Part shown: one piece after another, positions 27,601 through 64,000 of the stretch
Numbering within the stretch: the stretch's first letter is position 1
Layout: the number at the start of each line of letters is the position of its first letter
From: Tubulanus polymorphus
Lineage: Eukaryota > Animalia > Nemertea
Direction: 5' to 3'
NCBI RefSeq assembly: GCF_964204645.1
Contig: NC_134030.1
Span: forward strand, 16,988,110-17,052,109
DNA length: 64,000 nt
The notes under the pieces: model-generated
Databases searched by the model: none
Seen by the model: only the letters and a program-made list of their open reading frames with translations
What the model was told of the DNA's origin: nothing
Made by a program: the position numbers and the translations under genes

Positions 27601-30600
27601 GATCAAGGTTTGATCGCGAGAGGGACTACGATCGTTATTGTCGGAAGTTTCGCCGTCGGTCTTCTCATCGTTCGTCGACGTCGGTAAGCGATGAAAGCGA
27701 TTCTTCTAGTAGGTCGCGATCCCGTTCGAGGGACCGTCACCGAAGTCGGCATGATCGTCGGGATACTGGAAAATACCTGACTCAGAAGGATTTCCATGTA
27801 TTTGAGGAGAAAATTTTAAACTTGTTATCTTCGTCGTAACAAGTCGCTGCAACTTCTACAACAGGTAAGCCTATTCCTAATTGTCCGGTTAGAAGTTCGC
27901 CAGCCCACTCAGTTTTTCGGAATTCTGACTCTGAATTCCTGGATGCTGCGGTAGGGTCTGATTTCAATGAGGATCCGGTCCCAGAAGCGGCAATTCCTTC
28001 TAGGGTCGTTCCTGTCGCGAGCAATTGTGGGTTGCCCTAGACGATGGGGCTTCCCTGGCTCGCAATGTATCTCCGTCCCGTTCAGTTTTATCCGAACCAG
28101 CGTGGGACATGCCATTTAGAGCGATGATAAGTGAGTTCTTTGTCAAGCACGGGGCAACTCGCGCTAAGCCCACAGCAGCTCCTCTGGTCGGTGAGTCAAT
28201 GGAAGCTTATCGCCCTCCGGACTCCGATCTTAACGTTTTACGGGAATCGTCAGCGGTTTCGAGAGAATGGGCTCGATTGGATACGCAATTATGGGGTGAA
28301 TGTCGGCCTGGAACTTTTTCATTTCCCCCTCCAGAACGGGGTATGAAATCTGGGAAATATTTTAGTTCAACCGATCCACCTATAGGCGCATTTCGCTCGG
28401 CGTATTACGCAACTCCAGGTGCTGTGGATCACAGTCATAACTGCCTGGATGCTGATTATACTTTGATCAGCCCGGATACTGTTACAGCACAGTCGGGTAT
28501 TCGTTTGCCAAAGTCCGGTTTGGTGGCCATGACGTCAATCCTGGACAATCTTACCAGGGTTGGTTCGTTTCAAGATATGGCACTTAAGGTGTTGACGGGT
28601 GAGCTTCGCGAGACTCACGCCGCCGTTCATGCGGGCTCCGAGAGAGTCAGTTGCCCTAAAACTGGAGGGAATGGACCGGATAATCCAATCTTTGGCTCAG
28701 TCTGTTTCGCATGTAATTCCGTTGTCGGTTCGGGGTCAGGCTAATCTGGTGTTAGCCTCCCGTCAGTCAGTGATGGACTCCAGTTCCAAAACTCGTCTAC
28801 CGGATATGGTGTCCAATGCTTTGCTGAGAGCCCCATTGGGGACGTCTTCTCGTCTCTTCTCCGGTTGGTGCGCTCCGGTTTCCGCAGAGCTGAGGAAGAT
28901 TCGGGAGGTTCAGGCCAAGTCCAACCCCCGAACTCCGTGGAAAAAGCGTTCTGGTCCGACGCCGGCGGCGCAAAGTTCGGCACGGACGCAAACAGGACCA
29001 TCTCAAACTTCAGCATTTTCTCAGGCGGCTTTGGATGCCGGTTGGAGAACTAGCGCGCAACTTCAACAATCGTGTCAAGCCTCGTCCGGTCGTAACAGTT
29101 CCGGTTCGTATCGAGGCAAGGGGAAGGCTCCAAAAAGGGGCTCTTCCTTTCGGAAAAACTCGATATGAATTCTTGGGACCAGTTGGAGGTTGTCTGCAGC
29201 AGGCAGCAACCCACTGGTCCGAACTCTTTGGAGACGGTTGGCCCTCCCGGGTCGTCTCTCGTGGCTACCGTCTCCGTTTCCTAAGGCGACGGTGCCTGAT
29301 GAGGTCACCTCCCGACATGCGGCCAAAACCAGGTCAGGAGGCCTTAATCTCTCCGGCTCTCAAGGAACTGGCAGAGAAGGGAGCGATAGAACCAGTTTGC
29401 AACGAAACTTCTCCCGGCTGGTTTTCTCGAATATTCATGGTACCAAAGGCCACAGGGGGTCAACGGACAGTGATAGATCTGTCATCCCTCAATCGGCACC
29501 TAGACATTCCAAGGTTCCGGATGACCAAGCCCAAGGACGTGATTCAAGGGCTCCGTCCGGGTCAATGGGCGGCTTCATTGGACCTGAAAGATGCTTACTT
29601 TCAGGTTCCAATTCACCCAAAATCTCGGCGATTTCTCAGGATAAAGTGGAAAGGCTGCCAGTTCCAATTCAGGTCTCTTCCATTTGGCCTCAGTACGGCC
29701 CCGAGGTTTTCACCAAGTTGGTCAAGTCAGTTCAGAAGGTACTTCAGTCAAGGGGTGTTCGACTGTTCGTTTACCTCGACGACTGGTTAATAGTTTCGGC
29801 TGAGGAATGTCGGGAGGCAATGACCTCAGTCTTGGACTTAGTCCATCAGCTAGGGTTCCGCGTAAACAGGGAAAAATCTCAGTTGACGCCGGCCCAACAG
29901 TTCACTTATCTCGGCATGGACTTCGATCTCCGAATCGGCAAGGTCTTTCCGTCTATGGTTCGAGTAGCCAAACTTCAAGAAGCTGTAGCGGGAGTGTCCA
30001 CAACCCCGAGAACAGCTCGTTACTGGTCACGGCTTCTAGGCTCCATCAGCTCCATGGGTCTGGTGGTGCCCTTAGGCCGCCTCAGAAGCAGGCGCTTGCA
30101 ACAATATTGGAAGGTCTTCTGGTCTCAGTCGAAGGGCAACTGGGAGGCCTTGATTCCCGTACCTCCAACCGTTCTAAGTCCGGATCTTCAGTGGTGGGCG
30201 GCAACTACGAATCTTCGGCTCGAGGTGTCACTAGCCCCGTTAGAGGCTCCAGTTCGTGTATTCACGGATGCCAGTTACCAAGGATGGGGGGCACATCTGG
30301 AGAACCGCGTCAAAGGCGGGAGATGGTCTCGCTACGAGGGCACCAACCACATAAATTTCCTAGAAATGCTGGCCGTGTGGAAGGCCCTGAAGTTCTTTCA
30401 CAGGAGAGTGGAGGGCCACCACGTTTGGTTAGCCACAGACAATTCAACAGTGAGGGCTTACCTTCAGAACCAAGGGGGCACTCACTCAGAAACCCTCACA
30501 GGTCTGTCGGCCAAAATTCTTCTTTGGTGCCAGACAAAGGGCGTGTCCCTGACTGTGGCACATTTAGCAGGGAAAAGGAACGTGATGGCCGATGCTCTGT

Positions 30601-33600
30601 CTCGTCGAGGTCAGGCTATTGCGACAGAATGGGTTCTCCACCAAGAAGTAGCCGATCGGGTTCGGGGCATTTTTGGCAATCCGCTGCTGGATCTGTTTGC
30701 CACCCGGTTCAATCGGAGGTGTCCTCTGTTTGTGTCCCCGTTTCCAGACGCGGAAGCGTGGGGGTCGATGCCTTCTCTCTGGACTGGTCGGGGATGCATG
30801 CGTATGCGTTCCCGCCCACACCAGTCCTGCCGCGCTTACTGGATCAAATAGAGAGATCAGTCAATTGCAACATAGTTCTGGTAGCACCATGTTGGCCGGC
30901 TCAGAAATGGTTCCTACCACTTCTCAACCTACTGTGCGACAACCCCAGGATTCTTCCGAATTTCCCATCGCTTCTGTCTCAGGGGAACTTTCGGCATCAT
31001 CCAAACAGCCAGTGGTTAAATCTGCTCGCCTGGCCATTGTCCAGCGATCTTTGTCAGCTTCAGGCTTTTCAGAACAGGCTGCCTCCTTTATCGCAGGATC
31101 TAAGCGGCCATCAACAAGTACCATTTACGATGCCAAATGGAGTCATTTTGCGGATTGGTGTGCTGCAGGGGAAATTGATCCATGCTCACCCTCTGTAGCT
31201 CAATTGGCAGATTTTTTACTGCACCTATTTGTAGTAAAAGGTTTGCAGGTCATAACTATTAAAGGTTACCGCTCCGCGATTTCTCATACATTGCGTGCTT
31301 CTGGATGGCCAAATGTAGCAGGGGATCATCGGATATCCCAGCTGGTTGCAGGGTTTTCTATTTCCCGGCCTCGGGTAACAAGGACAGTTCCACCATGGGA
31401 TCTGTCTGTAATTTTGAAGAAGTTAATGGAGGCTCCATTTGAACCTCTTTCGGCAGCGTCATTTGCAAATTTGTCAAAAAAGACTGTATTTTTGCTGTTC
31501 TTGGCTTGCTCGGCCCGTCGCTCTGAGATTCATGCGCTTTCAGTCCGACAAGGTCATATTGTCTCTGGGCCAGCGATTGAATTTGTTTCGCTGCGGCCTG
31601 CTTTGGAATTTTTGGCAAAGAACCAACGACCAGGCTCGGTTGGGCGTCAATGGCGAATTGAAGCCCTAAAATATCGAGTGGAACCGGGCATCCCGGACAG
31701 GACTTTATGTCCTGTGCGGGCGTTGTGTTTCTATTTAGATCGCTCTGCTTCACGGAGGGGTTCACGGGAGCGGTTATTTATTCCGCTGCTGGATCACCTA
31801 AAGGGGGATATTTCGCGGGACACAGTGGTGCTCCGTTGGAGTAAGTCTGTCGGGCCGCCTTTTGGAATTCACCGTCGACATTCACGTCATTTTATTTACG
31901 GGATGTTTCAGGCCAGTTAGGCTCATTAGCTTCACTTGGTCCTGTTGTCATGGCTCAAGGTGTCCGTTCTTTCCGATCGGACCCTTTAGTGTAGAATATT
32001 TATGTTGCATTATCAGGATCACGGGGTGTATCCTTGTACATAGTTTGGGCTCATATCTGCAAGTATTAATTTCGCAAAATTCTGGGGGGGCCCCTGAGCT
32101 GGACGGACTCACTGTGGCCAACCGGTCTTCCCTGTGCTACAGTGCTCCATTCCGTGCTTGGGTAAGTGCTCTCTTTTTCCCTCTTACCTTGCGTTTGAGC
32201 GGTGGTTTTTCTATCTACCTTTCCCACCATCCTTGTGCTAGGCTAGTCTAGCAAAAACCATAGGAAAGGGTACAGTACTCGACGGAAATATTACAATTTT
32301 TGGAACTAAAATTTGTATTTCCGAGTAGTACTTACCCTTTCCTATGGTGGGAATCCCGCCCACCTGCCCCGCATAGCTGTTTTTTTTGGTCTGCTATGAC
32401 GTAAAAAGATGGCGGATTTCGCCGGTGGCTAAATGCAATACCGCAGGGCCGGGTCGTATAGAAAAACCATTGGCGATATAATTCCAAATTTAGAAAATAT
32501 TGGCCAAAAACCATAGGAAAGGGTAAGTACTACTCGGAAATACAAATTTTAGTTCCAAAAATTGTAATTTTTATCCGAAATGCTCTAAAATCGCTCTCAG
32601 GGCAATGAAAATTCAAAATTTTTCTGGGGAAGTGCCCGCAGAAACACAGTCATCATACGGATTATTAATCAATTCGTTGAGCGGAGTATCATCTTCCACG
32701 TCAAATTCATCACCTGCTCAGATCATAACATCCTCTGTACCGTCCAGAGCTTTCGAGATACAGCACTTTTGGAACGATTTCTTAACCATTTCAACTGATG
32801 ATTGGTCTTAAATTTTTAACTATTTCTACTTATTCGCTATGAATTAAATAACTGAGTGGAAAATAACTGTGCACTGATTGGTAAATTACTGAGAATTTAC
32901 TAATTTTTGACAGATTTACGAAGTTAGTCATGGCCTTTGTTTTAATAGTGCCGGATCAGTGACGGCCAACTATAGCCTGAGAAATCAACATGGAATTACT
33001 GGAGATGCGCGCTTGACTTTTGAACCTAATTTGACCCAAATTCTCGTGATAAAAGTTTTTCGTTGGTTATTTAATCTGATAACAAAAAGGTACCTTAAAT
33101 TTTTAACTATTTCTACTTATTCGCTATGAATTAAATAACTGAGTGGAAATTCTGTGCACTGATTGGTAAATTATTGAGAAATTACTAATTTTTGACAGAT
33201 TTACGAAGTTAGTCATGGCCTTTGTTTTAATAGTGCCGGATCAGTGACGGGAAACTTTAGCCTGTGAAATCAACATGGAATTACTCGAGATGCGCGCTTG
33301 ACTATTGAACCTAATTTGGCCCGAATTATCATGATCAAAGTTTTTCGTTGGTTCTTTAATCTGATAACAAAAAGGTACCAAAAATATACAGTCATGCACA
33401 CAATAAACAAACTATAATGCATAAAACGGTTTATAAACGGTAAAATGTATCTTATAAATCTTGCGGTAAGATTAATGATGTTTCAATATATTGAATTTGA
33501 ATTGATGTCATTGTGTGATCAGCCTCAGGACTTCAGAATCACCAGCTGTTGCTATCACCATTTCCTAAAAAGAGACTCGGAAAAATTCAATACCGATTTT

Positions 33601-48058: not shown

Positions 48059-48475
48059 TGTTGGAAGGGTCCGAACCTCCGAGAATATGACACTAACAAA
48101 ATAGTTACAGCTACAGATATACAACTTTATTTTCACTCACATGCCACAAGCATTCATAATGTCTCCCTTTCTTAAAAGCAATGTCAGAATTACAACAAAT
48201 TACTTTAATCCAATAAAATCACAACTTGATAATTAAGCAACATTCTCATATTAACTAGATTTTATATAATTAGTGGTAGTCGTGAGATAGTGTTACTATC
48301 TGATGTGCTTTTCGGTACTGCCTCGATCTGCGGACGTGACGATTCCTGTATATTCGTGGCCTCGGGTATTAATGGACTCGGTGCCATAGATTGATACTCT
48401 TGGATGTGTACCCGGCTTCGGCGGTATCAGCGGCCCATCACATTCAACTAGGTATGATCGGAGTAATTGGTAAAT
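48059..48475 (-). mobile_element. Gypsy-like LTR retrotransposon 3' remnant
   Basis: Minus strand reads RSYLVECDG/(fs)GR*YRRSRVHIQ (integrase C-terminal motif), then purine tract AAGAAAGGGAGA and a ~100-bp LTR-like segment with AATAAA ending in CA. Confidence 0.5.
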
Positions 48476-48546
48476 CAGGGGTTAAGACCAGAGGTCCTGA
48501 GGTCAACACACCACTCATCACCACAAGTTATTTTTTTTTCTTATAA

Positions 48547-48873
48547 ATGGGAGATAGAAAAGCATTCTTAGCAACAATAAATAACAGCATAAAACCAGCA
48601 AAAAACAATTTGAAACAAAAAAGTTAGTCGATGTTACAAAAGAAATTGAATACAAAATATTGAAATTAGAAAAAATTAAAAACTAAATATGGAGATGAAA
48701 TATCAGCAAATTTAAGTAACTGTAATGTTAGTACAATGCGAGAATTTAAAGTATTTTTACCTGATAAATGGGTTTCATTGAGTACAGAGGAATTAAAAGA
48801 TTTAGAAGGATTCAAAATAATCTATCATGGAAAAAATGAAGATGGTCATCATGATTTAGAAATTGTTGATTAA
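48547..48873 (+). pseudogene. Small viral ORF, possible OB-fold ssDNA-binding protein (copy 1, frameshifted)
   Basis: MGDRKAFL.../KKLVDV..YKILK..TKYG..VFLPDKW...EIVD*; fold is inferred from the TKYG...VFLP pattern only. Confidence 0.5.
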
Positions 48874-51800
48874 AAAAATAAATTGATAATAAAATTAAAT
48901 AAATATCAAGAATCCGAAATGACTTATCTGGACAATTTAATTGATCGAGGCACTGAAGAGAACGGTCGATAGTGTGTTTGCTATATACAGTGATTGCGCG
49001 TAACAACTAGCTGCGCTCGGATAGATCGATGTGGCGAGGCACTGACGAGAACGGTTGATAGCGTGTTTGCTATATACAGGGGGAAGGTGACCGCGCTCGG
49101 ATGGACCCGGTTCATTTAATTGTTTCAAAATAGAAATATTGTTAAAATGAATTAAAATTATTTTTTTGCTTTTTTAGATCATTCATCTCCACAAGTAATT
49201 TTTTTCCCAATAAATGGGAGAAGTGAGTACCAGACAGAAAACATTGATGTTAATAAAAATCAATATTATTGTGCGTACTGTAAAAAATTCATCGATAAAT
49301 CTCAAAAATCGCGCCATGAAAAAACTGAAAATCATATAAAAAATGTTATAGATTTTGAAACTTCAGAAAATTCCAATGAAAGAAAAGAACGATTAGAAAA
49401 TATGAATGTGGATGAAATAAAATGTGAAGTTTGTAATGAATTTATAACAAAAAGGAATTATAAAAGACATCTCGAATCACAAAAACACCAACAAAATTTA
49501 AGTAATAATATTTTAGGAACAGATTATTTTGATGATAAATCTCAACAAGTAAAAAAACCAGTTTCAAAAACTAAATCTATTTCAAATAAACCTTACATGG
49601 AAAATGTTAGAAATTATATCGATTCACTAGAAATAAAAGATACAATTGAAATTTTAGAAACATTACGTAGTAAAATTGGTCCTGCATCTATTATATTTAG
49701 ATTTTTTAAAGGAGCAACAATAGAGGATTATAGTAAATTTATTGAAATCATGGAAAAAATAATAGATTTTGTTACAGATGTTGAATATCCAAATATTAGT
49801 ATTTCTGGAAAAGTTAGTTTTATAAAATCAGAAGTAAAAATGGGGTATAATATTGAAACACACTGAAGAAATAATTTCAAAAACACAAATAAAAGAGAAA
49901 TTATAAAAAATATTTAATGAATTTAAACGACATATTGAAGAAAGATATTTTGAGGGTTCTGGCTTATCATTGAATGAAATTATATTTTTAGATTTAAATA
50001 TTTATAATAAAAAAGAAATAAAACATCAAAAAGTAATAAAATGTTTAAAAATGATTCAAACTTTACAACAGAAAAGGGTATTAAAGCATCGTCTTATATT
50101 AAATTGCCAATTAAAACTATTGCAGTAATAGATGTGCAGAATGATGATAATAAATGTTTTCTGTGGGCGAAAATGTTTTAAGTTGCTTACACCCAGCAGA
50201 AGATATTACGCATCGTTTTAGTTTAACAGATTATCGGAAATACGAAATATTATAAAAAAATTGCTCAATATCCAGTATCTAAAGATGATTCTTAAAATAG
50301 AAAAAGTTAATAATTTAAAAATAAATGTTTTCGAATTAATGCAATTACCAAAGACAAAAGGTGAAAATATTAAAGATACATTAGAAGCTTTATATTTAAC
50401 AGAATATTATGACGATAAAAATGTTATAGATTTGTTATATTACGAAAAAGATGAAAATGAACATTATATGTGGTTAAAACAAATTGATTTATTCTTTAGA
50501 ACAGAAAGTGATCATCATAATAAAATTTATCTATGTAGAAAATGTTTATCTTAATTTATGACAGAAAATGCGTTACTACAACATAAAGAATTATGTGATA
50601 ATAAAGATTTTTGCAAATTAATAATGCCAACAAAAAAAGATTGTAAGTTGAAATTTATTAATCATAAATTTAGAAATATTCCTCCATTTGAAATTTATGG
50701 GGATTTTGAATCGTTTAATAAAGAATTAACTGATCAAGATAGAAAAGAAATATACAATAAAAAGCAATTACTAAAATCAATGGATAAAGGAAATGAATTA
50801 AATGAAGACATAGTTCAAGATCCACCAATCATAAATACAATTAAAACAGTTCATCAAAGAGCTGCTGCTTATGGAATTTATATAAAATCAAATTATCCTG
50901 AATTATATGAAGGTCAATATATTTCTTTTAGAGGTGAAGATGTAGTTAATTAATTTTGTAATAAAATTATAGAATTAGAAAGTGATTTTGCACAATTATT
51001 TAACAAAAATAAAAGAATAGTTATGACAAAAGAAGATGAAATTGATTTTAATTATGCAAGTCATTGTTGTTACTGTGAAAAACGTTATTATTCATTTGAT
51101 AAAAAAGTTAGAGATTATGATCATTTAAATTCAAAATATCGTGGAGCTGCTCATGAAGATTGAAATTTACAAGCTAAAAAAGTATATTTTGTACCAATAT
51201 TATTTCACTATTTATCAAGATATGATACTCATCTATCTATATAACAATTATCAGGAAAATTAGGTGCAATTAATCTAGAAACAAAGAATATAATGCTATG
51301 AATTATTTAAATGTAAGAAAATATGATTTTAAACTACTAGCTAAAACATTCTGAAAATTATATTTCATTTCAATTTGGTTGCATTCGATTTTTAGATTCT
51401 TATAGATTTTTAGCAAGTTCATTAGATAATTTAGCAAAAAGTTTAGTTGATAATGATTTTGTAATAACTCGACATTATTATCCAAATGAACAAGATTTTA
51501 AATTATTGAGATATAAAGCAATTCCTTATTCATTTTATAAAACACATGATGATTTAATGTAACAGAATTATTAAAAGAACAATTTTATGATCAACTAAAA
51601 GAGGAGTATGTGAAAGATGAAGTTTTTAATAGAACATGAAATATTTGGAATCATTTTAAGATAAAAAATCATGGTGAATTAGTAGATTTAAATTTAAAAT
51701 CAGATGTTATGTTATTGGCTGACATATTTGAAAAATTTAGAGAAGTTAATTTAAATCATTTTAATGTTGATCCTTGTTATTTTTATTCAAGTCCTGGTTT

Positions 51801-51949
51801 AACCTGGCAATATGGTGTAAAATATACAAATGTAGAATTAGATTTATTAAAAGAACCAGACGTGGTTTTATTATTTGAAAAATCAATTAGAGGTGGAATT
51901 AGTGGTGTTATGTGAGATAGACATTTTAAAGCAAATGAATATAAATTAT

Positions 51950-54240
51950 TTTTCGAGTATACCAGGTTCGATCCAAACTACTAACAACGTACTAACTGAC
52001 TGACAGTACTAACAACGAGGCGTATTTCTCATAGTGAACTAACTCAGTTTTGACTTTATTTCCCCCTTTATAGTTACAGAATCAGCTGAACAGTAAATTG
52101 AACAAACAAGCGTGAACAGCAGTACAGGTTGTTCGGTTGTTCGCTTTATAATAAGGATTACAGGATATTACAATCTACAATACATAAAACATAATACACA
52201 CATATATATTCAGTTATTACTATTTCCAACATCCTCCCCGCCGCAAACGATGGCTTTTATCCTATCAGAGGCGAGTTTTGCTGCACGTCTCGAACTGCGT
52301 CTCGTAGCTCTATCTGGAACCGCGTTGGGAATGATGACGGTCTCCTCCAACTCGCTTTCACTGTTGATCTCCAGCGGATACAGTTTGTTTATTGGTCTAG
52401 AGGTTCGTCCTGAAGTTGTGCGAATAATTGAGGAACGAACTTTGTTATCTAGTCCGCGGTTTAGGTTTTCCACGATCGCTAATTTCCAATTGATACGCGG
52501 TGTATCTGCGTGCACTTGGACCAAATCGCCTATTTGATCACTTCGTTATAATCACCTGATGACAAGTGCCGCTCTCTTAGTGCCGTCAAATATTCATGGT
52601 GCCATCTAGCCCAGAAGTGCTTTATCAACTGAGTACGACGAACGAAACGCGTGTTCAACTGAGTAAACCCGTAATCTGGATCACTCAAATCGTCGTCATC
52701 CACGAGAGGATGAGGTAAACCAGTCAATCGGCGACCATGCAGCAAATGGGAGGGTGTTAGGAGGTACTCAATTCATCAACAGATACATGTGCTCTTCCTA
52801 ATGCCTTTTTAAGACAAGACTTTACAATACCCACCAGACGCTCCCAAAAGCCCCCATGCCAAGGGGCACGCTTTGGTATGAAACGCCATTCTACCCGTTT
52901 AGACGCCATTAACCGCTTAATTTCGGATGACTGTAGTAGCTCGTTCAATTCATTTGAAGCGCATGTATATGTTGACGCATTATCACTGATAACAACTCTC
53001 GGCAACGACCTCCGTGCAGAAAATCTGCGAAAAGCTTGGATGAATGAATCAGCACTAAGATCAGAGACTAGTTCAAGGTGAATGGCACGTGTTACCGCGC
53101 ATGTGAATAGGCAAATATAAACTTTTGCATAACCCGAACTTGTTTTGACATTCAATGCCCCAGTATAATCGACACCCGAGATTGAAAATGGTGGAGATTC
53201 ATTCACCCGTACCGCTTGTAATGGAGCAGGATCTGGTAAGGCTTGCTTAACAACAGCCTGCAAGTAAAACAAGATCGTAAGACAGAATTCACACACTGAC
53301 GAATACTAGGAATCAAGTATTTTTCTCTGATGAAATAAATAGTTTCACCCGGACCCGCATGCATGATTAAACAATGCGCATATTTTATGTACAAGCGAGT
53401 AAAATGACTGTATTTCGGCAGCAAAGCAGGGAATTTTGATGAACTTAGCAATTGAGAGTTATGAATTCTCCCCTCGGAGCGCAAAACCCGGTTTTTGTCT
53501 AGAAACAATTTTAATTGTTTCGCAATAGCGGGTAATTTCCCTTCAGATTCAATAACGTGAATAACTTGGCCATATTCTTTCTTTTGGCAACTAATCAACC
53601 ATAGTGTTTCAGCCGACTCTAATTCGTTTACATCGATTATATCAGTATTAATGAGCCGCTTCATACACTTATCAACGAACCGTTTTACGTAAGCCGTAAC
53701 TGTAAGCAGTTTACTCAATGAACTGTAACTTTCAATATCAATAATTTCAGAAATGTCATTTAGAGTATCTGTACTAAGCGCACAAGTTTCTAAACAATTA
53801 GAAATACAATCTGATTCATCACCAGTATTCAAACGGTCCTGATTAAAGTTTGTATACGAATTAGTCACTTCTATCAAATCTGGACCATACCACCATAATG
53901 ACGATTCTTTCAGAATATCTATTGACATGCCTCTCGTCAACAGGTCAGCGGGATTCTGACTTGTTTCACAATAGTGCCAATTAGTCAAAGCAACCAGTTG
54001 TCTGATTTCCGATATCTTATTTGAGACAAATACCGGAAGTTTCTTAGTCGAAAACAGCCAATGTAACACTGTACTATTTGACTATCGGACCAATAGTGAA
54101 CATCTAAGTCCAAATCTGTCAGTGATTCTACAATGAATGAAGACAAACGCGCAGCTGAAAGTGCTGCTCGTAATTCAAGTTCTGGTACAGTGCGTGATTT
54201 GATGGGCGCTACTCGGTTTTTCGACATAACAAGACTAACG
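51950..54240 (-). mobile_element. BEL/Pao LTR retrotransposon fragment (RNase H, integrase, 3' LTR) inserted in polB
   Basis: SKNRVAP..VPELEL, YWSDS, NPADLLTRG, HAG..C..C, GVDYTG, TRAIHLELV, SDNA, PWHGGFWERLV, FWARW..EYL, RPINKLYPLE; PPT GGCGGGGAGGA then TG-starting LTR from 52231 down to ~51950. Confidence 0.93.
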
Positions 54241-55040
54241 CTATATATTGACGCCAATAATTTATATGGTTGGGCAATGATGCAACCTCAACCATACAAA
54301 AATTTTATATTAACAGAAGTTGAAAATGATGATAAAACTGATTGGGAAAGTGCAATTATGGGTTTAAAAGATGAAGCACCAATTGGTTATTTCTTTGTAG
54401 TTGATTTAGAATATCCTGATAACGTAAGATTTAAAACAAGAAATTTACCATATTGCCCAGAACATTTAGCTGATAGATGATAGTTATTTAAGTGAATATC
54501 AGAAAAAAATAAAACCGAAAGATCATGTTTTTATAGAAAAATAAATATTAACATAAAATAATAAATACAATCATATCGTTCATTATAGAATGTTAAAATT
54601 TTATCTAAAACAAGGAAAATTAAAGAGTACATAGATATATTGAATTTAATCAATCGAAGTGGTTAGAAAAATATATAGATTTCAATACTCAACAGAGAAC
54701 CATATCAAAAACAGATTTTGAAAAAGATTTTTTTAAATTAATGAATAATAGTTTGTATGGAAAAACATGTGAAAATATTAGAAATAGAAATGATATTGAA
54801 TTAGTAAATAATTCTGAACGACTGAGACATTTACAATCAAGTCCTAGAAACTTACGAAATAAAAGATTTGAAGATTATTTAACAGCAGTATAATTAAAAA
54901 GAACATCAATGAAATTTAATAAACCAATATTTATAGGTTCAACTGTTTTAGAAATATCAAAATTATTAATGTATGATTTTTATTATAATGTTTTACAACC
55001 GCTTTTTGGGGAAAAACATATTGAAATATTATATTTTGAT

Positions 55041-56096
55041 TCTGTAACAGCTGATACTCCAATATTATTGAAATATAATAATCAAATATTAATAAGAAGA
55101 ATTTCAGAAATAATTCCAAAACAAAATAAATCTTATATTTTATATGGTAAAAAAGAGTTAATACAATTAAATGGATTAATGGATGTTTGGACAAGAAATG
55201 GATGGAAAAAATTAAAGAATATAATTAGACATAAAACAAATAAAAAAATTTAGAACTAAATTAGGGTTTGTAGATGTTACAGCAGATCGTAGTTTAATTA
55301 AACAAAATGGTGATGAAATAAAACCAACTGATATAAAAATTGGAGATGAATTATTACATAAAAGATTTTATCTAGGAATGAATCATATGTCATTTGATGA
55401 AATAATTGATAATATTATAACATAGAACCTGAAACATTTGAAGAAAAAGAATATATTTTCAAAGGATTTTTTATGGGAGATGGTTCAGCAGGTGTGTATA
55501 ATTATGTTGGTGGCAATAGATATTGTTGGTATTTATGCAATCAAGATTTGAAATTATTAGAAAGAATTAAGAAATACTGTGAAGAAGTTTATTCACATAA
55601 AATATTTAGAATCGTGGATCATATGAAATCATCAGCAGTTTATAGAATACTTGTGAATAATCCAAAAGATTTTGCAATAAAATATAATGATAAATTCTAT
55701 ATTCATGCAATAGTTAAAAGTAATACTTCTACCAAAGAAGAGATAGTGCCAGATTATGTATTAAATGCAAAATATAATCTAAGAAAATGGTTCTTCATTG
55801 GATTCTATGCTGCAGATGGGCAGAAAAAATATACGAGATCTCCAGTAATAACATTTGCGCAAAAAGGACAAGTTTCTATATTAGGATTGTATATATTAAG
55901 CAATTCATTAGGATTTAATATGAATATTGAATTAATTAAATCTAAACCAAATTGTTTTAATTTAAGACATGTAGAAAATGAACTAACTGAAGAAGTTAAA
56001 GATTTGTTTGAAACATCCAACCCAACTGACTATGTTTATGATTTATCAACAGATGATGGCACATTTAATTGTGGATTTCCATTAATCCTGGTCAAT
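55041..56096 (+). other. Intein with LAGLIDADG homing endonuclease in PolB motif C (degenerate)
   Basis: YFD|SVTADTPILL (block A); VDVTADRSL (block B, His replaced by Arg); GFFMGDG and FIGFYAADG (LAGLIDADG helices); DYVYDLST..LILVN|TDS (blocks F/G, Asn then Thr+1); two compensating frameshifts. Confidence 0.9.
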
Positions 56097-56209
56097 ACTG
56101 ACAGTTACATGCTAAAAATCAAGACAAATGACATAACAAAAGACTTAAAAACATTAAAACATCATTTCGACTTTAGCAATTACCCAAAAGATCATGAATT
56201 ATTTTGCAA

Positions 56210-56330
56210 TGATGACTATTAGGATATAGTCGAAACGTTGAAATGAACTACTATCTAGAAGTTAAATTTTCGCACTTTTCCGTTATAATTGTGGGATTCT
56301 CTCTACATCGCGTCAACACGGATATAGTGT
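56210..56330 (+). mobile_element. 5'-truncated Penelope-like pLTR/hammerhead fragment truncating polB
   Basis: TGA-T-GACTAT-taggat-ATAGTC-GAAACGTT has the same layout as the 38869 hammerhead but lacks the 5' core; polB similarity ends here. Confidence 0.55.
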
Positions 56331-57390
56331 TCTATCAATCGTGATCAACTTCATGAACCACCTTAATGCAATTTCTTAAAGAACCAAGGATCAAGTTCTA
56401 TTAATGGGAGACTGCAAAGAAGTTAACTAAGAAAAGCTCTCTGTCGCAGTGTCTGACAAACACATCGCAAGCTAAGTCTGTGAATGGATCTGTACCACTG
56501 GATGGTTCCAACATGTCGACCGTCCTACCAGATATAGAGGTAACGACACGCCCAACATCTTGGACCTCGTCATAACCAATCAAGAAACAGCCATCAACGA
56601 CTTCGTGTTCATGCCTGGGATCGGTAAACGCGACCATCTCGTACAGATCATATCTGTCAACTGCACAGTCCAAAACCAGAAGTGCCAACCCAGCACGAAA
56701 CGCTGCTACCATTAACCAAATTTCAAAGCCACGAACAACTCCTTACTGAAGACCCAATGGACGCCCAATTCAGCTGACCAAACCATTCAAGATTTAAACC
56801 TCATATGTACAATCTTTATTGCATCCCGGAATGAGAATGATTATCTTAATCTTACATAGTCTTTATATACATAATTGGGAAAACTAGATGTCAGAAAGTT
56901 TGTAGAAATCAGGACTCACAAACTAACACCTAGTGACATGTTTGAGAGACACAATTAATGATGAGTACCGACTAGAGCTAATTACTATGTATATATATTG
57001 AGTAGCTATATATATGATTATGAAATATGTGACTTATATCAGGGTGACACGTGCCAATTGGTGTTGAAAGAAAATAGAACTAAAACACAAAAGATGGCGA
57101 TGCTACTCTTACTCACAAAGTGACAAAAGACTACAACCGTTACGTCAAAGCGAGGTACTACTATAACATGCAACGAGGCTAAAAGCAACTACGAATCGCA
57201 ACTATCGGCTGAAATATCAGCTAATATCTGCTAACCCTCAAGCCTTCTGGAGCTCTGTACGCTCCACAACCAAGAACAAGGATTCAATTCCTCCTTGAAG
57301 GAAAGCAGGTGGATACCTAGCAACGTCAGACCATGACAAAGCCTCACTCTGGAACGACCACTTTGCATCGTCAACAACGTCAACATCGCC
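56330..57390 (+). mobile_element. CR1/L2-like LINE ORF2 fragments (APE endonuclease and linker)
   Basis: ~56500-56640 reads WFQHVDRPTRYRGNDTPNILDLVITN..GIGKRDHL; ~57130-57370 reads NPQAFWSSVRS..DKASLWNDHFAS. Confidence 0.8.
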
Positions 57391-58737
57391 AGACAACCCT
57401 GTAAAGGGAAATATTGGAAAATGGTCCTCTCCGAACTTTTTTTGCAGTGTATGTATAGTTGTATTCCCAGATATTGTTGTAAAAAGTATTATCTAGTTTT
57501 GAATTAGTTTAATGAAAAACTGAATATGGGGGAATTTTTACGAGAGGAATTCTTTCTGGGGGACATTTACCGGGGGATTTTTACCTGTTACCGTACAATT
57601 CCACTCTTAAAAAGCTTCAAACACTGATATATTCAAATATGATAATTTTATTTATCTGAAAACAATCCAGTATCTACCTTAGAGAACGATCGCAGGTAAC
57701 CGGTCAGGGTAGAGAAGCGCCAAGACGAACTTAACGGCCGAGCGTCCGTGACCAGAGTGAGCCACGAGATATTGGGGGATGATCGGCATTGTCAGGCAGG
57801 CCTGGGGTGGGATGCGCTCCGCCCTGGCCAAGACACACGACTGCATAATGATGGACAAGAAAGACACCGATGGCTATACCAGATGGGTCATTGCCGGGTC
57901 AACAAGAACCGCGCCTTCTGTCTCCCACTTGGACATTGGTGACAAATATACTACTTGTGAAACCTCGACAAAGAATATCCGAAGGGACTGCATTACCATC
58001 TCAACATCGAATGTGATAATACTTCTCCAGATGCGATCTTATTCATGCATACGCAGACCACATGTTTTGGCTAAAGTAAGTAATAACATTAATGAACCCA
58101 CGTGATCTAGCGTGGGATTGACAATTGAACCTCTGCTTGGGCATAAGGAACCACAGAGTGGGAGAAAATAACTCAATAGAAAATAAACGCTCATCAGTAG
58201 AATTGTATAATAATGTAATTGTCAATTTTAACTAGGCAAATTACAGCAATTAACACATAGCACTGGTATGCCTAGCCTATAATAGTTAATTTAATTCCTT
58301 TTAACCATTTGATTGTCAACAATGAATAAATGAGAAAAATTCCACAATAAATTAGCCAACGATGCAATGTTCTTGAATAGTAGAGTAACGTTTCGGCAGT
58401 AATTAGAAGATGGCGTTTTCAGATCAGAGGTCGAGAGGTCGAGACACCACTCATCACAGCTAGGCTCTAGTGAGAACGGACGATTGCTCTGTGACACACA
58501 TATACAGTGAGTGCGCGTAACAACAACTGCGCGTGGATAGATCGATACAGTGAGTCTCTACTGAGAACGGTTATTAACGCGCGTGCTATTACTGTAGTAG
58601 TACAGTGATTGCGTGTCAACTGTACCCGGATAAATAGATGTTGTGAGGCTTGGGTGAGAACGGTTAATAGCGTGTTTGTTATATACAAGGGGAAGTAATC
58701 CCCACTCATCACCACAAGTAATTTCTTTTCCTAATAA

Positions 58738-59063
58738 ATGGGAGATAGAAAAGCATTCTTAGCAACAATAAATAACAGAATAAAACCAGCAAAAAACAAT
58801 TTGAAATAAAAAAGTTAGTTGATGTTACAAAAGAAATTGAACATAAAATATTGAAATTAGAAAAGATAAAAACTAAATATGGAGTGAAAGTATCAGCTAA
58901 TTTAAGCTACTGTAATGTTAGTACATCGCGAGAATTTAAAGTATTTTTACCTGATAAATGGGTTTCATTGAGTACAGAGGAATTAAAAGATTTAGAAGGA
59001 TTTAAAATAATCTATCATGGAAAAAATGAAGATGGTCATCATGATTTAGAAATTGTTGATTAA
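58738..59063 (+). CDS. Small viral ORF, possible OB-fold SSB (copy 2; needs a -1 shift at A AAA AAC)
   Basis: Near-identical to 48547-48873; ATG in ATAAATG context. Confidence 0.5.
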
Positions 59064-59240
59064 AAAAATAAATTGATAATAAAATTAAATAAATATCAAG
59101 AATCCGAAATGACTTATCTGGACAATTTAATTGCTCCGCATAGATGGTGCCATAAACAGCACCCACACAGTGATAGACAAAAGTAGTGAGATATTCAATT
59201 AATTAAAAAAAATTATTTTTTTTGCTTTTTTTCTAAAATA

Positions 59241-59609
59241 TTAATCCATTTTCTTTATTATCAATTTTGGAATTTCAGAAGTATTTTCATTTTTGATAGC
59301 AGTTATTTCAGAATTATTTATATCATGAATTTTATTTGATTTCTTATACAAACTACACCCAATCAAAATGAATACAATTACAAATCCAACTGTAAAATAT
59401 AGATATTTATCAAATATTCTATCATTAGAAGGAGTAGAAATAACAATATTTTCACTATTTTTATTAACATTTTTATTACTTATTTTTTCTTTTACAGCTT
59501 TTTTATATTCTTGTGATTTAATTCCTAATTGCCGAGACCATTCAATTTGTTTCTGAGTTCTCGGTTTTTTCTTCACAGTTAATTCCTTCACTTCTTTCAC
59601 CTCGCTCAT
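59241..59609 (-). CDS. Small basic viral protein with one predicted transmembrane helix
   Basis: KKKPRTQKQIEW; hydrophobic YLYFTVGFVIVFILIGCSLY; ATAAATG start. Confidence 0.65.
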   Translation of the reverse strand: MSEVKEVKELTVKKKPRTQKQIEWSRQLGIKSQEYKKAVKEKISNKNVNKNSENIVISTPSNDRIFDKYLYFTVGFVIVFILIGCSLYKKSNKIHDINNSEITAIKNENTSEIPKLIIKKMD

Positions 59610-60146
59610 TTATTATAGAAATATTTTTACTTTCAATATTTGAAAATGTTATAACCCCAGTTGATAATAATGTCATAAATCCGCCTAATTGAAATGATAA
59701 ATATCCAATCCATTTATTTAATTCAGTCATAACTAAATAATCATTTTTTAATCGGAATATAATCTATTTTCATCTTCAATTGGTAGTATATAATTACATA
59801 ATTTACTATAACCTTTTACTACATTTTCTGATATCGCGTCATTAATTCTAGCTGTTCTCGCGGATTCATAAATCTTAAATAATCTAATAATTTCATCTGA
59901 TTTCATTGTATCTAATTCATTATAAGTTAAATTTTTACCGACAAAATTTTTACATTTTCCAGATGCTATTAATATTTCTAATTGATGTTTACAGTAAAGA
60001 TAATATTCATAATTATTATTTGTTGTAACATTATTTAAAGCACAATCATCTGGAGTTAATTTGTTTTCTGTTATTCCTAAATCATCTAAAGTTTTTTCAA
60101 TTGGAACATCACCATTTTTAGATTTTATTTTCTTTTCACCCCCCAT
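59542..60146 (-). pseudogene. Polinton hypothetical protein split by a 1-nt frameshift
   Basis: ORFs 59748-60146 and 59542-59730 join as ...LYSD(L)KNDYLVMTEL... if one T is restored at ~59750. Confidence 0.6.
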
Positions 60147-60171
60147 TTATATAACAAAAAAATTAATTGTG
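60144..60171 (-). promoter_or_regulatory. Example of the recurring viral upstream motif ACAA(G/T)T(A/T)A-Tn-Nx-ATAAATG
   Basis: Also at 48522-48549(+), 49190-49217(+), 58713-58740(+), 63454-63481(-). Confidence 0.6.
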
Positions 60172-60177
60172 TGATGT

Positions 60178-60435
60178 TGCAACTAGAATTTAACTAGAAT
60201 GTAACTAGAATTCAACTAGATTAACAAGCTAGTTGAAATATTTTTGTTTTTGTTTATTTCTTGTTAAATCTAGTTGATTTTTGTTTCAACTACTAACAAC
60301 TAGAATTCAACTAGAATGTAACTAGAATTAAACTAGATTAACAAGCTAGTTAAAATATTGTTAAATCTATTTGATTTTTGTTACAACTACCAATAACTAG
60401 AATTCAACTTGAATTCAACTAGATTAACAAACTAA
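60178..60435. repeat. Intergenic array of 11-bp AACTAGAATDY units inside a duplicated ~120-bp block
   Basis: aactagaattt-aactagaatgt-aactagaattc-aactagattaacaagctagtt occurs twice, with a partial third copy. Confidence 0.8.
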
Positions 60436-60441
60436 TTGAAT

Positions 60442-61050
60442 TTAAATAAATTCATATTTAAATGGGTGTTGTAATCTAAATAGTAATTTTGATCTTTTAA
60501 TATTTTTCAACTTATCCATATATTCATTATGTAAATCATGTGGAATAATATCATTTTCCTCAAGTGCATTTTTCATCGATTTTCTATCTTTATTGTAGAA
60601 TAAAACTAGAAATCTAATGTTTTCTCTAAAGTCTTTAATAATTGAATTATATTTTTGATTTAAAACCCATGTTGTTATCCCAAAATGTCTCCCAGAGAAA
60701 GCTAGATAACATAACTCACTTTCTCTAACTTTTGAATCATGTAAATTTGCGCAATCATCTATGATAAATAATGTATTTGATCCTTTATAAATATCAATTG
60801 CTATTTTTATACAATTATCTAAATTTTCTTTTACTGTTTTAGGATCTAATATAATAAATTTATTATTCCTAGTAATATTTCTATCATAAGTTTGATTAAA
60901 TTCATATGTTGGACAAAATAATACTATATTATCAAAATAGTTTTCATAAACAGTTTCTAATAAATTTAATATAAAATAAGTTTTTCCACAATTTGTTACA
61001 CCAGAAATTAACATATTATGAGGCTCAAATATGAATAATTCCTTATTCAT
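60442..61050 (-). CDS. A32/FtsK-like DNA packaging ATPase
   Basis: Walker A GVTNCGKT, Walker B FIIDD, GRHFG, LNQKY, RENI; intact 202 aa. Confidence 0.92.
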   Translation of the reverse strand: MNKELFIFEPHNMLISGVTNCGKTYFILNLLETVYENYFDNIVLFCPTYEFNQTYDRNITRNNKFIILDPKTVKENLDNCIKIAIDIYKGSNTLFIIDDCANLHDSKVRESELCYLAFSGRHFGITTWVLNQKYNSIIKDFRENIRFLVLFYNKDRKSMKNALEENDIIPHDLHNEYMDKLKNIKRSKLLFRLQHPFKYEFI

Positions 61051-62178
61051 TTATATATTTTTAATTTTACTTGATAATATCCATTCATTGAATTTATCTG
61101 GCCATCCAACCCATTTTACTAAAGAATATTTTTTTCTTTTAATAGTTTTTGTTTTTAATACTTTTTCAATTTTATATTCTTGTTCTAGATTTTCAGTAGT
61201 TAAACTTAATTCTTCTTCGTAAAAGTAGCCATCAACTTCTTCACCATCTAAATCTTCTAATTTATAGACATATGGTTTTGTTGTTATTACCTTTTTTATT
61301 TTATATATTTCTCTAGTAAAATTTCGATCGTATCCTTTATCAAATATCTTTTTATACTTAGAAATTCTAACATTTTGACCAACTTTAAATTTAGGTTCAC
61401 CAAAATCATCTACAAGAAATGCTCCATATAAATTATTCCAAACAATTTCAGCATTTTCAGGTTTTCTAGCATCAATAGGTTTCATTCCAATAGAAGAATG
61501 ATAAGAATTATTATATCCTTCTATCAATTTTGGCAAAACATCAATCCATTTAAAAGTATTATTCGCTGTAAAATATTTCCACATTCTTGTTCTTAATGTT
61601 CTATTAAATCGTTCAACAACTGCTGCTTTTTTATCCGATTTTGTTGAAAAATATTTAATATTATGATTGTCTAAGAGTTCATGAACAAGTGAATTATTAA
61701 ACTCTTTTCCAATATCAAATTGTATTTTTTCTGGTTTTAGTTCATCATCCGAAAGAAATTTTCTTAAAACATTTGATGTTTGTGCAGCATCTTTTCTATA
61801 AAGTGGGAAACTCCATACATAACGACTAAAAATATCAATTATATTCAATAACCACCAATAATCATCATTATCTTTCTTAACATTTTTCATATCAATTAAA
61901 TCTCCTTGCCACCGTTGATCTACATAACTTACCATAGTTTTACGAGTTTTATATTTTCTAACAATTTTTTTATGTGTTGTATATGTTGGTTGTTCTAACA
62001 TAAATTCATTTATATCTTTATATTTAACTAAATTTTGTGGGATTATCTTATCTAATTTATCTTGTTTTACTTTACGCCATATATTTTCAGTAGAAGAATA
62101 AGTAACCGAACTCTCAGGGTTGTAATATAAATTTCTTAAATATTGTTCTTTAGTATTAGGAGTTTTTTTACCACCCAT
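61051..62178 (-). CDS. Retroviral-type (rve) integrase with C-terminal chromodomain
   Basis: WQGDLIDM, IIDIFSRY, QFDIGKEF, VVERFNRTL (DDE); YKIEKVL..LVKWVGWPDKFNEWI; intact 375 aa. Confidence 0.95.
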   Translation of the reverse strand: MGGKKTPNTKEQYLRNLYYNPESSVTYSSTENIWRKVKQDKLDKIIPQNLVKYKDINEFMLEQPTYTTHKKIVRKYKTRKTMVSYVDQRWQGDLIDMKNVKKDNDDYWWLLNIIDIFSRYVWSFPLYRKDAAQTSNVLRKFLSDDELKPEKIQFDIGKEFNNSLVHELLDNHNIKYFSTKSDKKAAVVERFNRTLRTRMWKYFTANNTFKWIDVLPKLIEGYNNSYHSSIGMKPIDARKPENAEIVWNNLYGAFLVDDFGEPKFKVGQNVRISKYKKIFDKGYDRNFTREIYKIKKVITTKPYVYKLEDLDGEEVDGYFYEEELSLTTENLEQEYKIEKVLKTKTIKRKKYSLVKWVGWPDKFNEWILSSKIKNI

Positions 62179-62208
62179 TTATATATCCTTAATTTTAACT
62201 TTATATTT

Positions 62209-63456
62209 CTAATATTGAATACTATCTAATTGTGAATTTACAATATTTAATTGTGCGTCAGATATAATATAAATGTGCATTTTAAAATTTTTGATTCCTT
62301 TTTTCTTTTTCATGAATAATTGTATTCCATCTTTAGTGTTCTGTAGTTTTTTCCCACAACCATGTAATGAATTATCCTCTGTTGTTCTAAAATCTAACCA
62401 TAATGCATATTTATTGCCGGTATAATAATCAATTTGATTAATATTACAATTTTCAAATGATTTTACTTTTTCATTCATAAAATGTTTTCTAATTTCTGGC
62501 CATTGATCTATCATTCTCATTCCCTGACAAAATATTTTATTTGCTATTCCTTCGATAGTTATTTCTACTTTTGTTATTTCAGGATTATAATAATTATCAA
62601 CCTTTATTGCGCCATTAGAATATGTTGCAATTGTAAAAAATATTAATATACCTTTAATAGATCTTCTTGGGAAGTTAATATTCTCATTAATCATTTCATC
62701 ATTTGCATTAATAGTTACAGTTTTAAATTTATCAATATAATCATATAATGATGAAAATCCTTGATTGTATTGAGTTTGAATTGTGCTAGCAATATTTTCA
62801 TTAGTAACTGTGTCATATTCTAAACATATATTCGATAATTTATAACCCATATCTTTAACAACGCTAGATAATACAATTTCATTAACAGGAGCAAATGTTA
62901 TCTCAAATGTAATATCTTCTTGAATTGCGTATTTATATAAAGGTGCATTATTATTTATCAATTCAAAGTCTAATGGAATTTTATATTTGCTTCCATAAAT
63001 CTTTTTAATCAAATTATCTGTGGCACGAGTTACTATTGCGTCATTAGCTCCTGATCTTAATTTATTATGGTTTTCCGATTGAATACCCTGAAATATCATA
63101 TTATTTCTATTTTCTTTAGTTAACCATAAATCTTTATAATGCATAAATAAATTATAATCATCTAATGAGAAAACTGTTTCCGGACCAATCTTTATAGTTA
63201 ATTTTTTAATCAAATATCTTCCAACATTATCAACAACATAATTGTTATCATGGCCAGTTACTTTTATATCGGCTGATAAATAAATACTATTTGGAACATA
63301 AAAAGTATTTTGTGTTAATCTATGAATTCTAACATATAAAGTTTCACCAGGATTAATATTTGAAGGGTTATTAGTAATTATCTGATGTGATCTTTCTGCT
63401 TTAATAGCATTAGATATTCTAGAAATCTTAGAAGGACTTATATAACTCCCACTCAT
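62209..63456 (-). CDS. Major capsid protein (double jelly-roll, Polinton/adintovirus type)
   Basis: Intact 415-aa beta-rich ORF next to integrase and ATPase; NNPSNINPGE.L.V, KIPLDFE, YKLSNICLEYD, PRRSIKGIL, YNPEITKV, YALWLDFRT, HG.G resemble invertebrate Maverick MCPs (from recall, not a search). Confidence 0.85.
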   Translation of the reverse strand: MSGSYISPSKISRISNAIKAERSHQIITNNPSNINPGETLYVRIHRLTQNTFYVPNSIYLSADIKVTGHDNNYVVDNVGRYLIKKLTIKIGPETVFSLDDYNLFMHYKDLWLTKENRNNMIFQGIQSENHNKLRSGANDAIVTRATDNLIKKIYGSKYKIPLDFELINNNAPLYKYAIQEDITFEITFAPVNEIVLSSVVKDMGYKLSNICLEYDTVTNENIASTIQTQYNQGFSSLYDYIDKFKTVTINANDEMINENINFPRRSIKGILIFFTIATYSNGAIKVDNYYNPEITKVEITIEGIANKIFCQGMRMIDQWPEIRKHFMNEKVKSFENCNINQIDYYTGNKYALWLDFRTTEDNSLHGCGKKLQNTKDGIQLFMKKKKGIKNFKMHIYIISDAQLNIVNSQLDSIQY

Positions 63457-63480
63457 TTATTAAACAAAAAAATTAATTGT

Positions 63481-64000
63481 TTATTTTTTATTATTTTTTT
63501 CTTGATATCTTTTTGATATCATATTCACTAACCCAAAAATAATAGCACTTACAACTGTAATTAAAAATAAAATAATATGTTCAGCAGCAAAGTTAAGAAT
63601 ATTCCCAGCAGATTTCAATATAAAACCAACAATTGATGCAATAATTCCTGGTAATGCTGCAGCAGATTTTTTAGATAGTTCCCATAAATATTTTGCTAAT
63701 TTCTTTAAACCATCCTTAACTTTATCTTGTATAGAATTATTATCATTCGGGGGTTTATCCGGTTTATTGGGAGTAGGAGTAGATTTCAAAGCATTTGATA
63801 TTGCTAAACCAATTGGTGTAAATAACATAGTTACAGCTGTTAGAATTGAAAGAATTGTTATTCCTTCTAATTTAAATAATAACTTTATTCTATCTTTCAG
63901 TGATATTTCAGAATTTGGTTTTATCAATAAATCTTTAAAAATAACTTTTAATCTATTTATATTATAATCATATGATTTTAATGATAATTTAATTTCTTCT
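63481..64000 (-). CDS. Polinton membrane-associated protein (5' end beyond the window)
   Basis: Frame stays open to the window edge; hydrophobic segments GITILSILTAVTMLF, AAALPGIIASIVGFIL, HIILFLITVVSAIIFGLV. Confidence 0.7.
   Translation of the reverse strand, partial: EEIKLSLKSYDYNINRLKVIFKDLLIKPNSEISLKDRIKLLFKLEGITILSILTAVTMLFTPIGLAISNALKSTPTPNKPDKPPNDNNSIQDKVKDGLKKLAKYLWELSKKSAAALPGIIASIVGFILKSAGNILNFAAEHIILFLITVVSAIIFGLVNMISKRYQEKNNKK

Follow-up and report, generated by a model that had tools for sequence, protein, structure and literature searches.

In one clade of Mavericks/Polintons, the sequence TAAATG covers the start codon of most genes, at a fixed distance from upstream A and T residues. 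The signal is found in a 64,000-nucleotide stretch of Tubulanus polymorphus contig NC_134030.1 (positions 16,988,110 to 17,052,109; hereafter the window, with its first letter as position 1), which from 48.5 kb on holds two decayed copies, A and B, of a multicopy Maverick/Polinton. The promoter-like nature of the signal is well supported, because the motif is clade-wide, is locked to the ATG, is absent in AT-matched sisters, and stands on accessory genes and divergent pairs; the spacing of its T residues is vaccinia-like. A preliminary description of this DNA had seen in such starts promoters for the RNA polymerase of a helper virus. The promoter-like part of that proposal is borne out by comparison; the dependence on a helper and its pox identity are what the DNA suggests to us. 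On balance, we lean toward a poxvirus-type post-replicative promoter and an element that would be a virophage-like parasite of a co-infecting cytoplasmic helper. That the helper would be some large virus, of whatever kind, seems probable with more assurance, and its pox identity is our best guess.

TAAATG starts in the window

All eight element starts that can be identified in the window read ATAAATG, and each fits the N-terminus of a homologue or a family. These starts had been listed in the preliminary description with five upstream boxes; all are present, one ATG being at 49214 rather than 49215. The AT-rich element parts contain 431 ATGs, 15 of them after ATAA, which leaves a background of 7/423 once the eight starts are removed. 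Two of the starts had been taken for duplicates of one gene. The duplication is real and extends further: three of the five boxes, at 48522, 49190, and 58713, align over CACTCATCAC-CACAAG and are one terminus-proximal sequence, and reads in other copies join the terminus-proximal promoter to the polymerase start (joints 58742 to 49229 and 48554 to 49222). Six starts are therefore independent and, against the background, give a p of about 2e-11.

The starts do not belong to a single element spanning 48522..63481, as had been proposed. There are two separate element ends in the same orientation, each beginning AGTAATT, at 48462 and 58398 (77% alike, 48462-48521 versus 58398-58457), and the G+C content drops to 0.23-0.30 from 48.5 kb on in two blocks. 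Genomic reads labeled as this species cover the element at a depth of about 230-830 and the lowest flanking bin at about 5.5. This depth corresponds very roughly to 40-150 copies, counting those at least 85% alike, as estimated from the 12% of one sequencing run that was read and with a single bin as the baseline.

The signal is shared across a clade

A capsid alignment search gave 80 metagenome loci (L numbers below), the best 80 of 101 confirmed. Starts were counted in families clustered from open reading frames (ORFs) and judged to be real genes, with N-termini that agree with a homologue. Of the 81 loci, 49 have a capsid ORF that reaches 300 amino acids, and in a tree of these capsids the window falls in a 15-row clade with 100/99 support; two further loci, L019 and L044, joined the clade on the strength of at least 50% identity, making 17 members, the window plus 16 metagenome loci. 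TAAATG stands at 44 of 53 homology-supported starts in this clade, versus 162/2584 of all its ATGs. TAAAT lies within -8..+2 at 48 of the 53 supported starts, and four exceptions shift it off frame. Outside the clade, in the other 64 loci, 18/251 starts read TAAATG. For the capsid gene alone, the figures are 14/15 in the clade versus 3/33 outside.

AT-richness had been counted in support of a helper-dependent element, but it does not set the clade apart from other lineages. The comparison with AT-matched Polintons that had been proposed as a check gave this result: 13 loci of other lineages with a G+C content of at most 0.34 have TAAATG at 0/48 starts, 12 loci of other TAAATG lineages having been set aside after the data were seen, whereas clade loci with a G+C content of 0.26-0.44 have it at 21/29. 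AT content as the cause of the motif is therefore rejected. Kinship alone is likewise weakened as an explanation, since the clade capsids are only 51-75% alike, the motif precedes more than 10 unrelated gene families, and accessory genes of one or few loci (deoxynucleoside kinase, HNH-like, zinc-finger) also start with TAAATG. The deoxynucleoside kinase genes of the clade members L001 (10343-10981) and L007 (2898-3380) have no mutual tblastn match at 1e-3 and are possibly separate acquisitions. The L001 kinase has three close relatives (60-67%) and then distant ones (28-38%), and its one relative in a viral contig is 37% alike; these relatives point to no helper virus.

The TAAATG cases outside the clade are mostly in two small lineages (L053/L064 and L054/L055) and in fragments absent from the tree. 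Together, L053, L064, L070, L054, L055, L060, L061, and L077 have TAAATG at 13/19 ORFs, their A and T peaks are displaced by about one base, and they form at least two lineages apart from the clade. With L014 coded positive (TAAATG 4 nucleotides [nt] upstream) and L023 negative, the trait requires three state changes on the capsid tree, which does not distinguish gain from loss. Other lineages have start patterns of their own. In a sister lineage TATA lies over 17/22 starts, versus a background of 84/1081, and L037, L039, L017, L018, and L062 have TAAAA(A)ATG-like starts, a pattern that may reflect an A-rich translation context of the ordinary kind or else an initiator of intermediate type. 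A different helper is possible for L027, L030, L035, L052, and L076.

Short contigs of several Bartonella sp. assemblies carry an annotated capsid that is 55% identical (P0044, with members of its cluster). It is probably host contamination and hints at land-animal hosts for the clade. Scans of viral contigs that used as queries the capsid, a pair of capsid alignments, the intein, and an intact polymerase found no relatives, nor did a scan of prokaryote genomes.

Architecture of the signal

The motif profile was built from non-shadow ORFs of at least 70 amino acids after two near-duplicate loci were dropped, with 92 non-start TAAATG sites in the same loci as the control. TAAATG occurs at 54/65 of these ORFs. 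Upstream of it, A is found at -18 in 42/54 starts versus 25/92 control sites, T at -13 in 43/54 versus 31/92, and T at -12 in 47/54 versus 31/92 (p from 1e-7 to 1e-10 for the three positions); A is found at -4 in 46/54 versus 37/92. Positions -17 and -11 show no enrichment over the 92 control sites. Within the region 15-19 bases upstream there is a single significant A peak, at the 15th base (-18), and no A run further up. Thus the upstream box of the preliminary description survives in its fixed-position part, A at -18, T at -13/-12, and TAAATG; its CACAA part is specific to the window's family and is lacking in the relatives.

T is disfavored at -3 for scanning translation. In the clade, T occupies -3 in 43/48 strictly supported starts, and elsewhere a purine does so in 144/196. 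Divergent gene pairs 28-30 nt apart have TAAATG on both sides. A fixed TGA core of the early-poxvirus or yeast-plasmid ATNTGA kind is absent from the clade starts, where TGA is scattered (at most 4/57 at one position). A trans-splice acceptor was considered and rejected, AG not being found before the ATG. Codon-shuffle tests for depletion of poly(A) signals and splice signals did not separate the groups.

Which polymerase would read the signal

Late promoters of vaccinia place TAAAT(G) over the start codon, and the 10th base upstream is conserved as T; the intermediate ones have TAAA and an AT-rich stretch 15-19 bases upstream (PMC11980589; here and below, statements attributed to published work refer to the portions of its text that were available). 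Poxvirus RNA begins within AAA and gains poly(A) leaders by slippage (PMC5294985, PMC6211774), and a fish poxvirus, that of salmon gill, has TAAATG on conserved genes (PMC4542343). The clade signal is like vaccinia intermediate/late promoters in its TAAAT(G) over the start, its T about 10 bases upstream, and, as far as one A peak goes, its A further up. It differs in where T peaks, the 9th base (87%) having slightly more than the 10th (80%), with the A peak at the 15th (78%), and in that the element, though of satellite size, has the signal before almost every gene, those for replication among them.

Under the helper reading we favor, the element would integrate via its own integrase and remain silent until helper infection activated the integrated copies. 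The element genes would then be read from TAAAT by the RNA polymerase of a poxvirus-type helper that had entered the post-replicative stage. The RNA would begin inside TAAAT and gain a slippage poly(A) leader, which would replace the unfavorable T at -3. Polymerase, integrase, and capsid genes would all await the intermediate/late stage of the helper, as in mavirus. Judging from its gene content, the element would supply its own polymerase, ATPase, capsid, and integrase and would borrow transcription; it would replicate by means of that polymerase and do its own packaging, in the way that mavirus does when CroV is its helper.

Several points weigh against this reading. Neither a helper sequence nor a transcript or start site came into view, and nuclear copies would somehow have to come to a cytoplasmic polymerase. 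A signal on 83% of genes far exceeds one poxvirus temporal class and is not a pox property, but such coverage fits a satellite. Neither the 95 non-core frames nor the 25 accessory ORFs scanned contained a Pox_ family. Equally short divergent spacers are found in lineages without TAAATG. TTTTTNT is depleted in coding strands (14 versus 40; observed/expected [O/E] 0.35; z -5.8), but amid a general deficit of T runs on the sense strand: in the codon shuffle the controls gave O/E values of 0.39 for T5VT, 0.65 for T5VV, and 0.63 for the mirror, and T5 is at 0.47 in the clade and 0.60 in GC-rich outgroup loci. AATAAA is used alike in the two groups: its O/E is 0.92 for the clade, against 1.00 for other AT-rich loci.

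The remaining points concern the kind of helper, which could instead be a large DNA virus outside the poxviruses, whether irido-, marseille-, or pitho-like or from elsewhere in the Megaviricetes, with late genes that start at TAAATG; we regard this as unlikely, though it is the best of the alternatives. Scanning viral contigs for a TAAATG pattern yielded 55 loci, whose shares are inflated by this choice. Among giant-virus-like contigs, TAAATG stands at 10/16 ORFs in L131, 9/16 in L096 (both assigned to a family from the look of their genes only), and 12/37 in bin G001, and at 21/87 starts in five mostly prasinovirus-like loci. The capsid of G001 is closest to structures 6ojn and 7yjl, which we take to be an iridovirus and a marseillevirus capsid, and invertebrate iridoviruses are well known. 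However, the 31 starts of L131, L096, and G001, a small sample, are without the clade peaks (A at -18 in 42% versus 78%, T at -13 and at -12 each in 52% versus 80-87%), which favors the pox pattern. As an observation in its own right, L131, L096, and L085/L140/L141 are giant-virus-like loci in which one to two thirds of ORFs start with TAAATG, possibly the late initiator of irido/pitho-like viruses.

The intein in the element polymerase had also been said to fit activation by a pox-like or other large virus, but it is a weak argument. Its relatives are first other protein-primed polymerases (five matches, 39-56%) and then family B polymerases (30-35%), stand-alone and pol-delta-like, with the intein at the same insertion site. 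The three of these that were checked rank pol delta first, and no poxvirus polymerase is among the structure matches listed. This fits a non-pox helper, but the intein is patchy in the clade, the member L008 being without it, and it may move independently of helper choice.

Somewhat less probable still is an autonomous nuclear Polinton read by host RNA polymerase II, with the motif as a lineage-specific core promoter or as a look-alike of a TATA box or poly(A) signal in compact AT-rich spacers. Indeed, the starts read TATAA|ATG in 23/57 and AATAA|ATG in 24/57 cases, many copies are integrated in nuclear DNA, start motifs in other Polinton lineages are different or missing, and no helper has been seen. 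However, a TATA box over the ATG would begin the RNA within the gene, yet these ATGs are conserved N-termini. A poly(A) signal would not need a fixed distance to the next ATG, and terminal and divergent genes without an upstream gene on the same strand have the motif too. Moreover, the T at -3 would be disfavored in host translation by scanning.

A resident cytoplasmic element with a pox-derived RNA polymerase, like the yeast plasmids, or a polymerase-bearing member of the family could also transcribe these genes. Yeast virus-like elements do use a TAAAN initiator and poly(A) leaders (PMC6211774), but the ATNTGA-type element at a fixed place was not found here, and scans of the window and of 95 non-core frames from 24 loci, all incomplete elements, turned up no RNA polymerase family; we give this explanation little credence. 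Least credible is that TAAATG is a feature of translation or packing, by stop-start coupling or as an in-frame stop against read-through: genes are tightly packed and in the window the integrase stop codon is the TAA of the ATPase start, but the TAA ends an upstream ORF in no more than 2/44 cases and only 9/57 starts have a stop within 10 nt upstream, counts that largely refute coupling, while the four exceptions keep TAAAT off frame (48 versus 44 of 53) and A at -18 and T at -13/-12 go unexplained.

The two copies and their surroundings

The Maverick/Polinton hallmarks found are a protein-primed family B polymerase, an rve integrase, an A32-type ATPase, and a capsid whose evidence for a double jelly-roll type is weak but concordant. 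Of the ends, where Mavericks/Polintons have terminal inverted repeats and a 6-bp target-site duplication, the window holds one per copy, the two being alike and in the same orientation. An adenovirus-type cysteine protease (adenain, a Group 1 Polinton trait) was not seen in the window, in the 11.5-kb L001, or in the clade frames scanned, which come from incomplete loci.

The inferred terminus of copy A (48462..48521, + strand) has host-like sequence on its left, begins AGTAATT, and ends in CACCACTCATCAC. It is followed by an A/T box and ATAAATG (48522..48549, +; read from the sequence) and by a small terminal gene (48547..48873, +) that is broken by stops and frameshifts and is 52% identical by tblastn to L001:125-466, where an intact homologue of 114 amino acids is found. 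In the Atlas the protein scores 0.87 against a cluster in which 44% of the members have PF17427, and its nearest Atlas clusters are without names and mostly arthropod. A single-sequence fold was poor (predicted local distance difference test score, pLDDT, 51) and gave no structure match. As a lead only, the gene possibly encodes a phi29-type single-strand DNA-binding protein. Two tandem repeat units of about 90 nt follow (48922..49086, +), and the same units are found at 58527-58695. Such units (GAGAACGG...TATATACAG) lie near both ends (48922-49086 and 58447-58702), and many other copies are without them; they are possibly a small inserted element.

The polymerase gene of copy A begins with an A/T box and ATAAATG (49190..49216, +) homologous to the terminus-proximal box. 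The gene for the protein-primed family B DNA polymerase (49214..56222, +) is broken and 3'-truncated; tblastn pieces are 32-62% identical to the intact polymerase P0186 (PF03175). Its damage consists of stops, frameshifts, and a retrotransposon insertion, a fragment of a long terminal repeat (LTR) retrotransposon on the opposite strand (51939..54241, -; Integrase_H2C2, E=1.6e-7) that is presumably BEL/Pao-like. This insertion is private to copy A or to few copies: 127 reads skip from 51938 to 54242, and depth there drops to host level. At the catalytic motif of the polymerase (YFD|S ... N|TDS) lies the intein, with a homing-endonuclease region (55041..56096, +), 56% identical to the intein of P0186 (PF14890, PF14528), on which TIGR01445 was also detected. 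An intein with a homing endonuclease is thus seen in a Polinton polymerase of a probable animal genome. The copy A polymerase ends in a 32-bp stretch (56211-56242) that in other reads is part of a high-depth tandem repeat.

Copy B opens with its inferred terminus, a repeat insert, and an A/T box at 58713-58737 (58398..58737, +), as seen by repeat comparison and in reads. The 255-nt insert (58447-58702) is missing from many other copies, and 376 reads skip from 58446 to 58702. The small terminal gene is again broken (58738..59063, +; ATAAATG start; 71% to L001). All of the following genes are on the minus strand. A predicted membrane protein of 122 amino acids (59241..59609), placed by its homologues in a clade-specific family, has its ATAAATG start within the coding end of the upstream gene. 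That gene, the conserved Polinton gene F3, function unassigned (59542..60146), is frameshifted near 59750 and has a box at 60147-60171 and an ATAAATG start. An AACTAG-rich intergenic repeat array with no long open frame (60180..60440) separates F3 from the A32-type packaging ATPase, which is open (60442..61050; Pox_A32, E=4.4e-13). The integrase, retroviral in type, with a chromodomain and an ATAAATG start, is also open (61051..62178; rve, E=3.7e-10, above the cut-off; Chromo, E=8e-4), as is the major capsid protein (62209..63456; box at 63457-63481, ATAAATG start). The capsid has 935 homologues and Capsid_N at E=0.0095 (below the cut-off); Atlas places it near viral clusters (scores of 0.97-0.98), in some of which 10-24% of the members have jelly-roll families. 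The C-terminal part of the conserved Polinton gene F2 (63481..64000; 75% to L001:4328-5782) ends the window, and the element runs past it.

Judged from its sequence, the DNA of the window is eukaryotic and very likely animal; the host setting is an intron-split TPR nucleoporin gene (TPR_MLP1_2, E=5.9e-12). Within the TPR gene, at about 27-32 kb of the window (26953-31920), lies a GC-rich retroelement, presumably of DIRS type, that encodes reverse transcriptase and RNase H and is followed by a recombinase-like ORF.

Comparison with known systems

We found no description of TAAATG-type promoters in animal Polintons in a literature search that had most subscription papers outside it. Term searches of the available text of PMC8502044, PMC8097293, PMC11071308, and bioRxiv 10.64898/2026.06.19.733378 returned nothing on element promoters, and in that of PMC11296320 the terms promoter, motif, TAAAT, and upstream do not occur. 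Literature pairing "TAAATG" with "polinton" concerns protist virophages and aphid small RNA, and bioRxiv 10.1101/2024.03.23.586382 links egoviruses to Trichomonas polintons via KilA only. Within the literature covered, polinton-like viruses (PLVs) linked to poxviruses are already known, and a lineage-wide TAAATG promoter signature in animal Polintons is new.

Polinton virions have not been observed (PMC8097293, bioRxiv 10.64898/2026.06.19.733378). A lineage-wide, position-locked, helper-type promoter makes the expression of animal Polintons, together with the missing virions, directly testable. If the helper reading is true, a pox-like virus is predicted in hosts for which the literature covered has none on record. 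Start-site motifs would also offer a way to guess helper identity across Polinton lineages. A bolder generalization, which we hold only tentatively and think rather doubtful, is that animal Mavericks/Polintons are endogenous virophages lineage by lineage, with start motifs that name the helpers: an aquatic-invertebrate poxvirus for this clade and an asfarvirus type for the sister with TATA. If true, it would explain why Polinton virions are unseen, and the copies would be a mavirus-like inducible antiviral system in animals.

Mavirus offers the closest mechanistic parallel: the late promoter of its helper, CroV, precedes all of its genes, and it has a protein-primed family B polymerase and an rve integrase, integrates, and is reactivated by the helper (PMC6723459). 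Mavirus and Sputnik differ from the present element in having a protist host, a helper from the Mimiviridae, and a different motif. Their dependence is experimental, whereas here it is suggested by sequence, and the capsid lineage probably differs.

PLVs occur in entomopoxvirus occlusion bodies (AHEV_PLV1/2, CBEV_PLV1, and Ca_PLV1; PMC11296320). These are alike in being small, Polinton-type, linked to poxviruses, and found in animals, and one PLV lineage falls within maverick-polintons (PMC11296320). By their description, however, they lack an rve integrase and have protease, phospholipase, and L2-mu-like genes, which were not seen here. Their tie to a poxvirus is co-sequencing from occlusion bodies, and the available text of PMC11296320 holds no promoter analysis.

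The yeast elements pGKL1/2 are likewise linear, are based on a protein-primed family B polymerase, and have a TAAAN-type initiator (PMC6211774). Unlike the present element, they have their own RNA polymerase and the ATNTGA element, neither of which was found here, and are without capsid and integrase.

The nearest kin are the animal Mavericks/Polintons (Polintoviricetes; adintoviruses, PMC8502044), which share the protein-primed family B polymerase, the integrase with rve and chromodomain, the A32 ATPase, and the jelly-roll-type capsid, as well as ends starting with AGT and many chromosomal copies. The element is probably a Group 2 Polinton in the sense of bioRxiv 10.64898/2026.06.19.733378. 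What sets the present clade apart from its kin is its clade-wide TAAATG promoter architecture.

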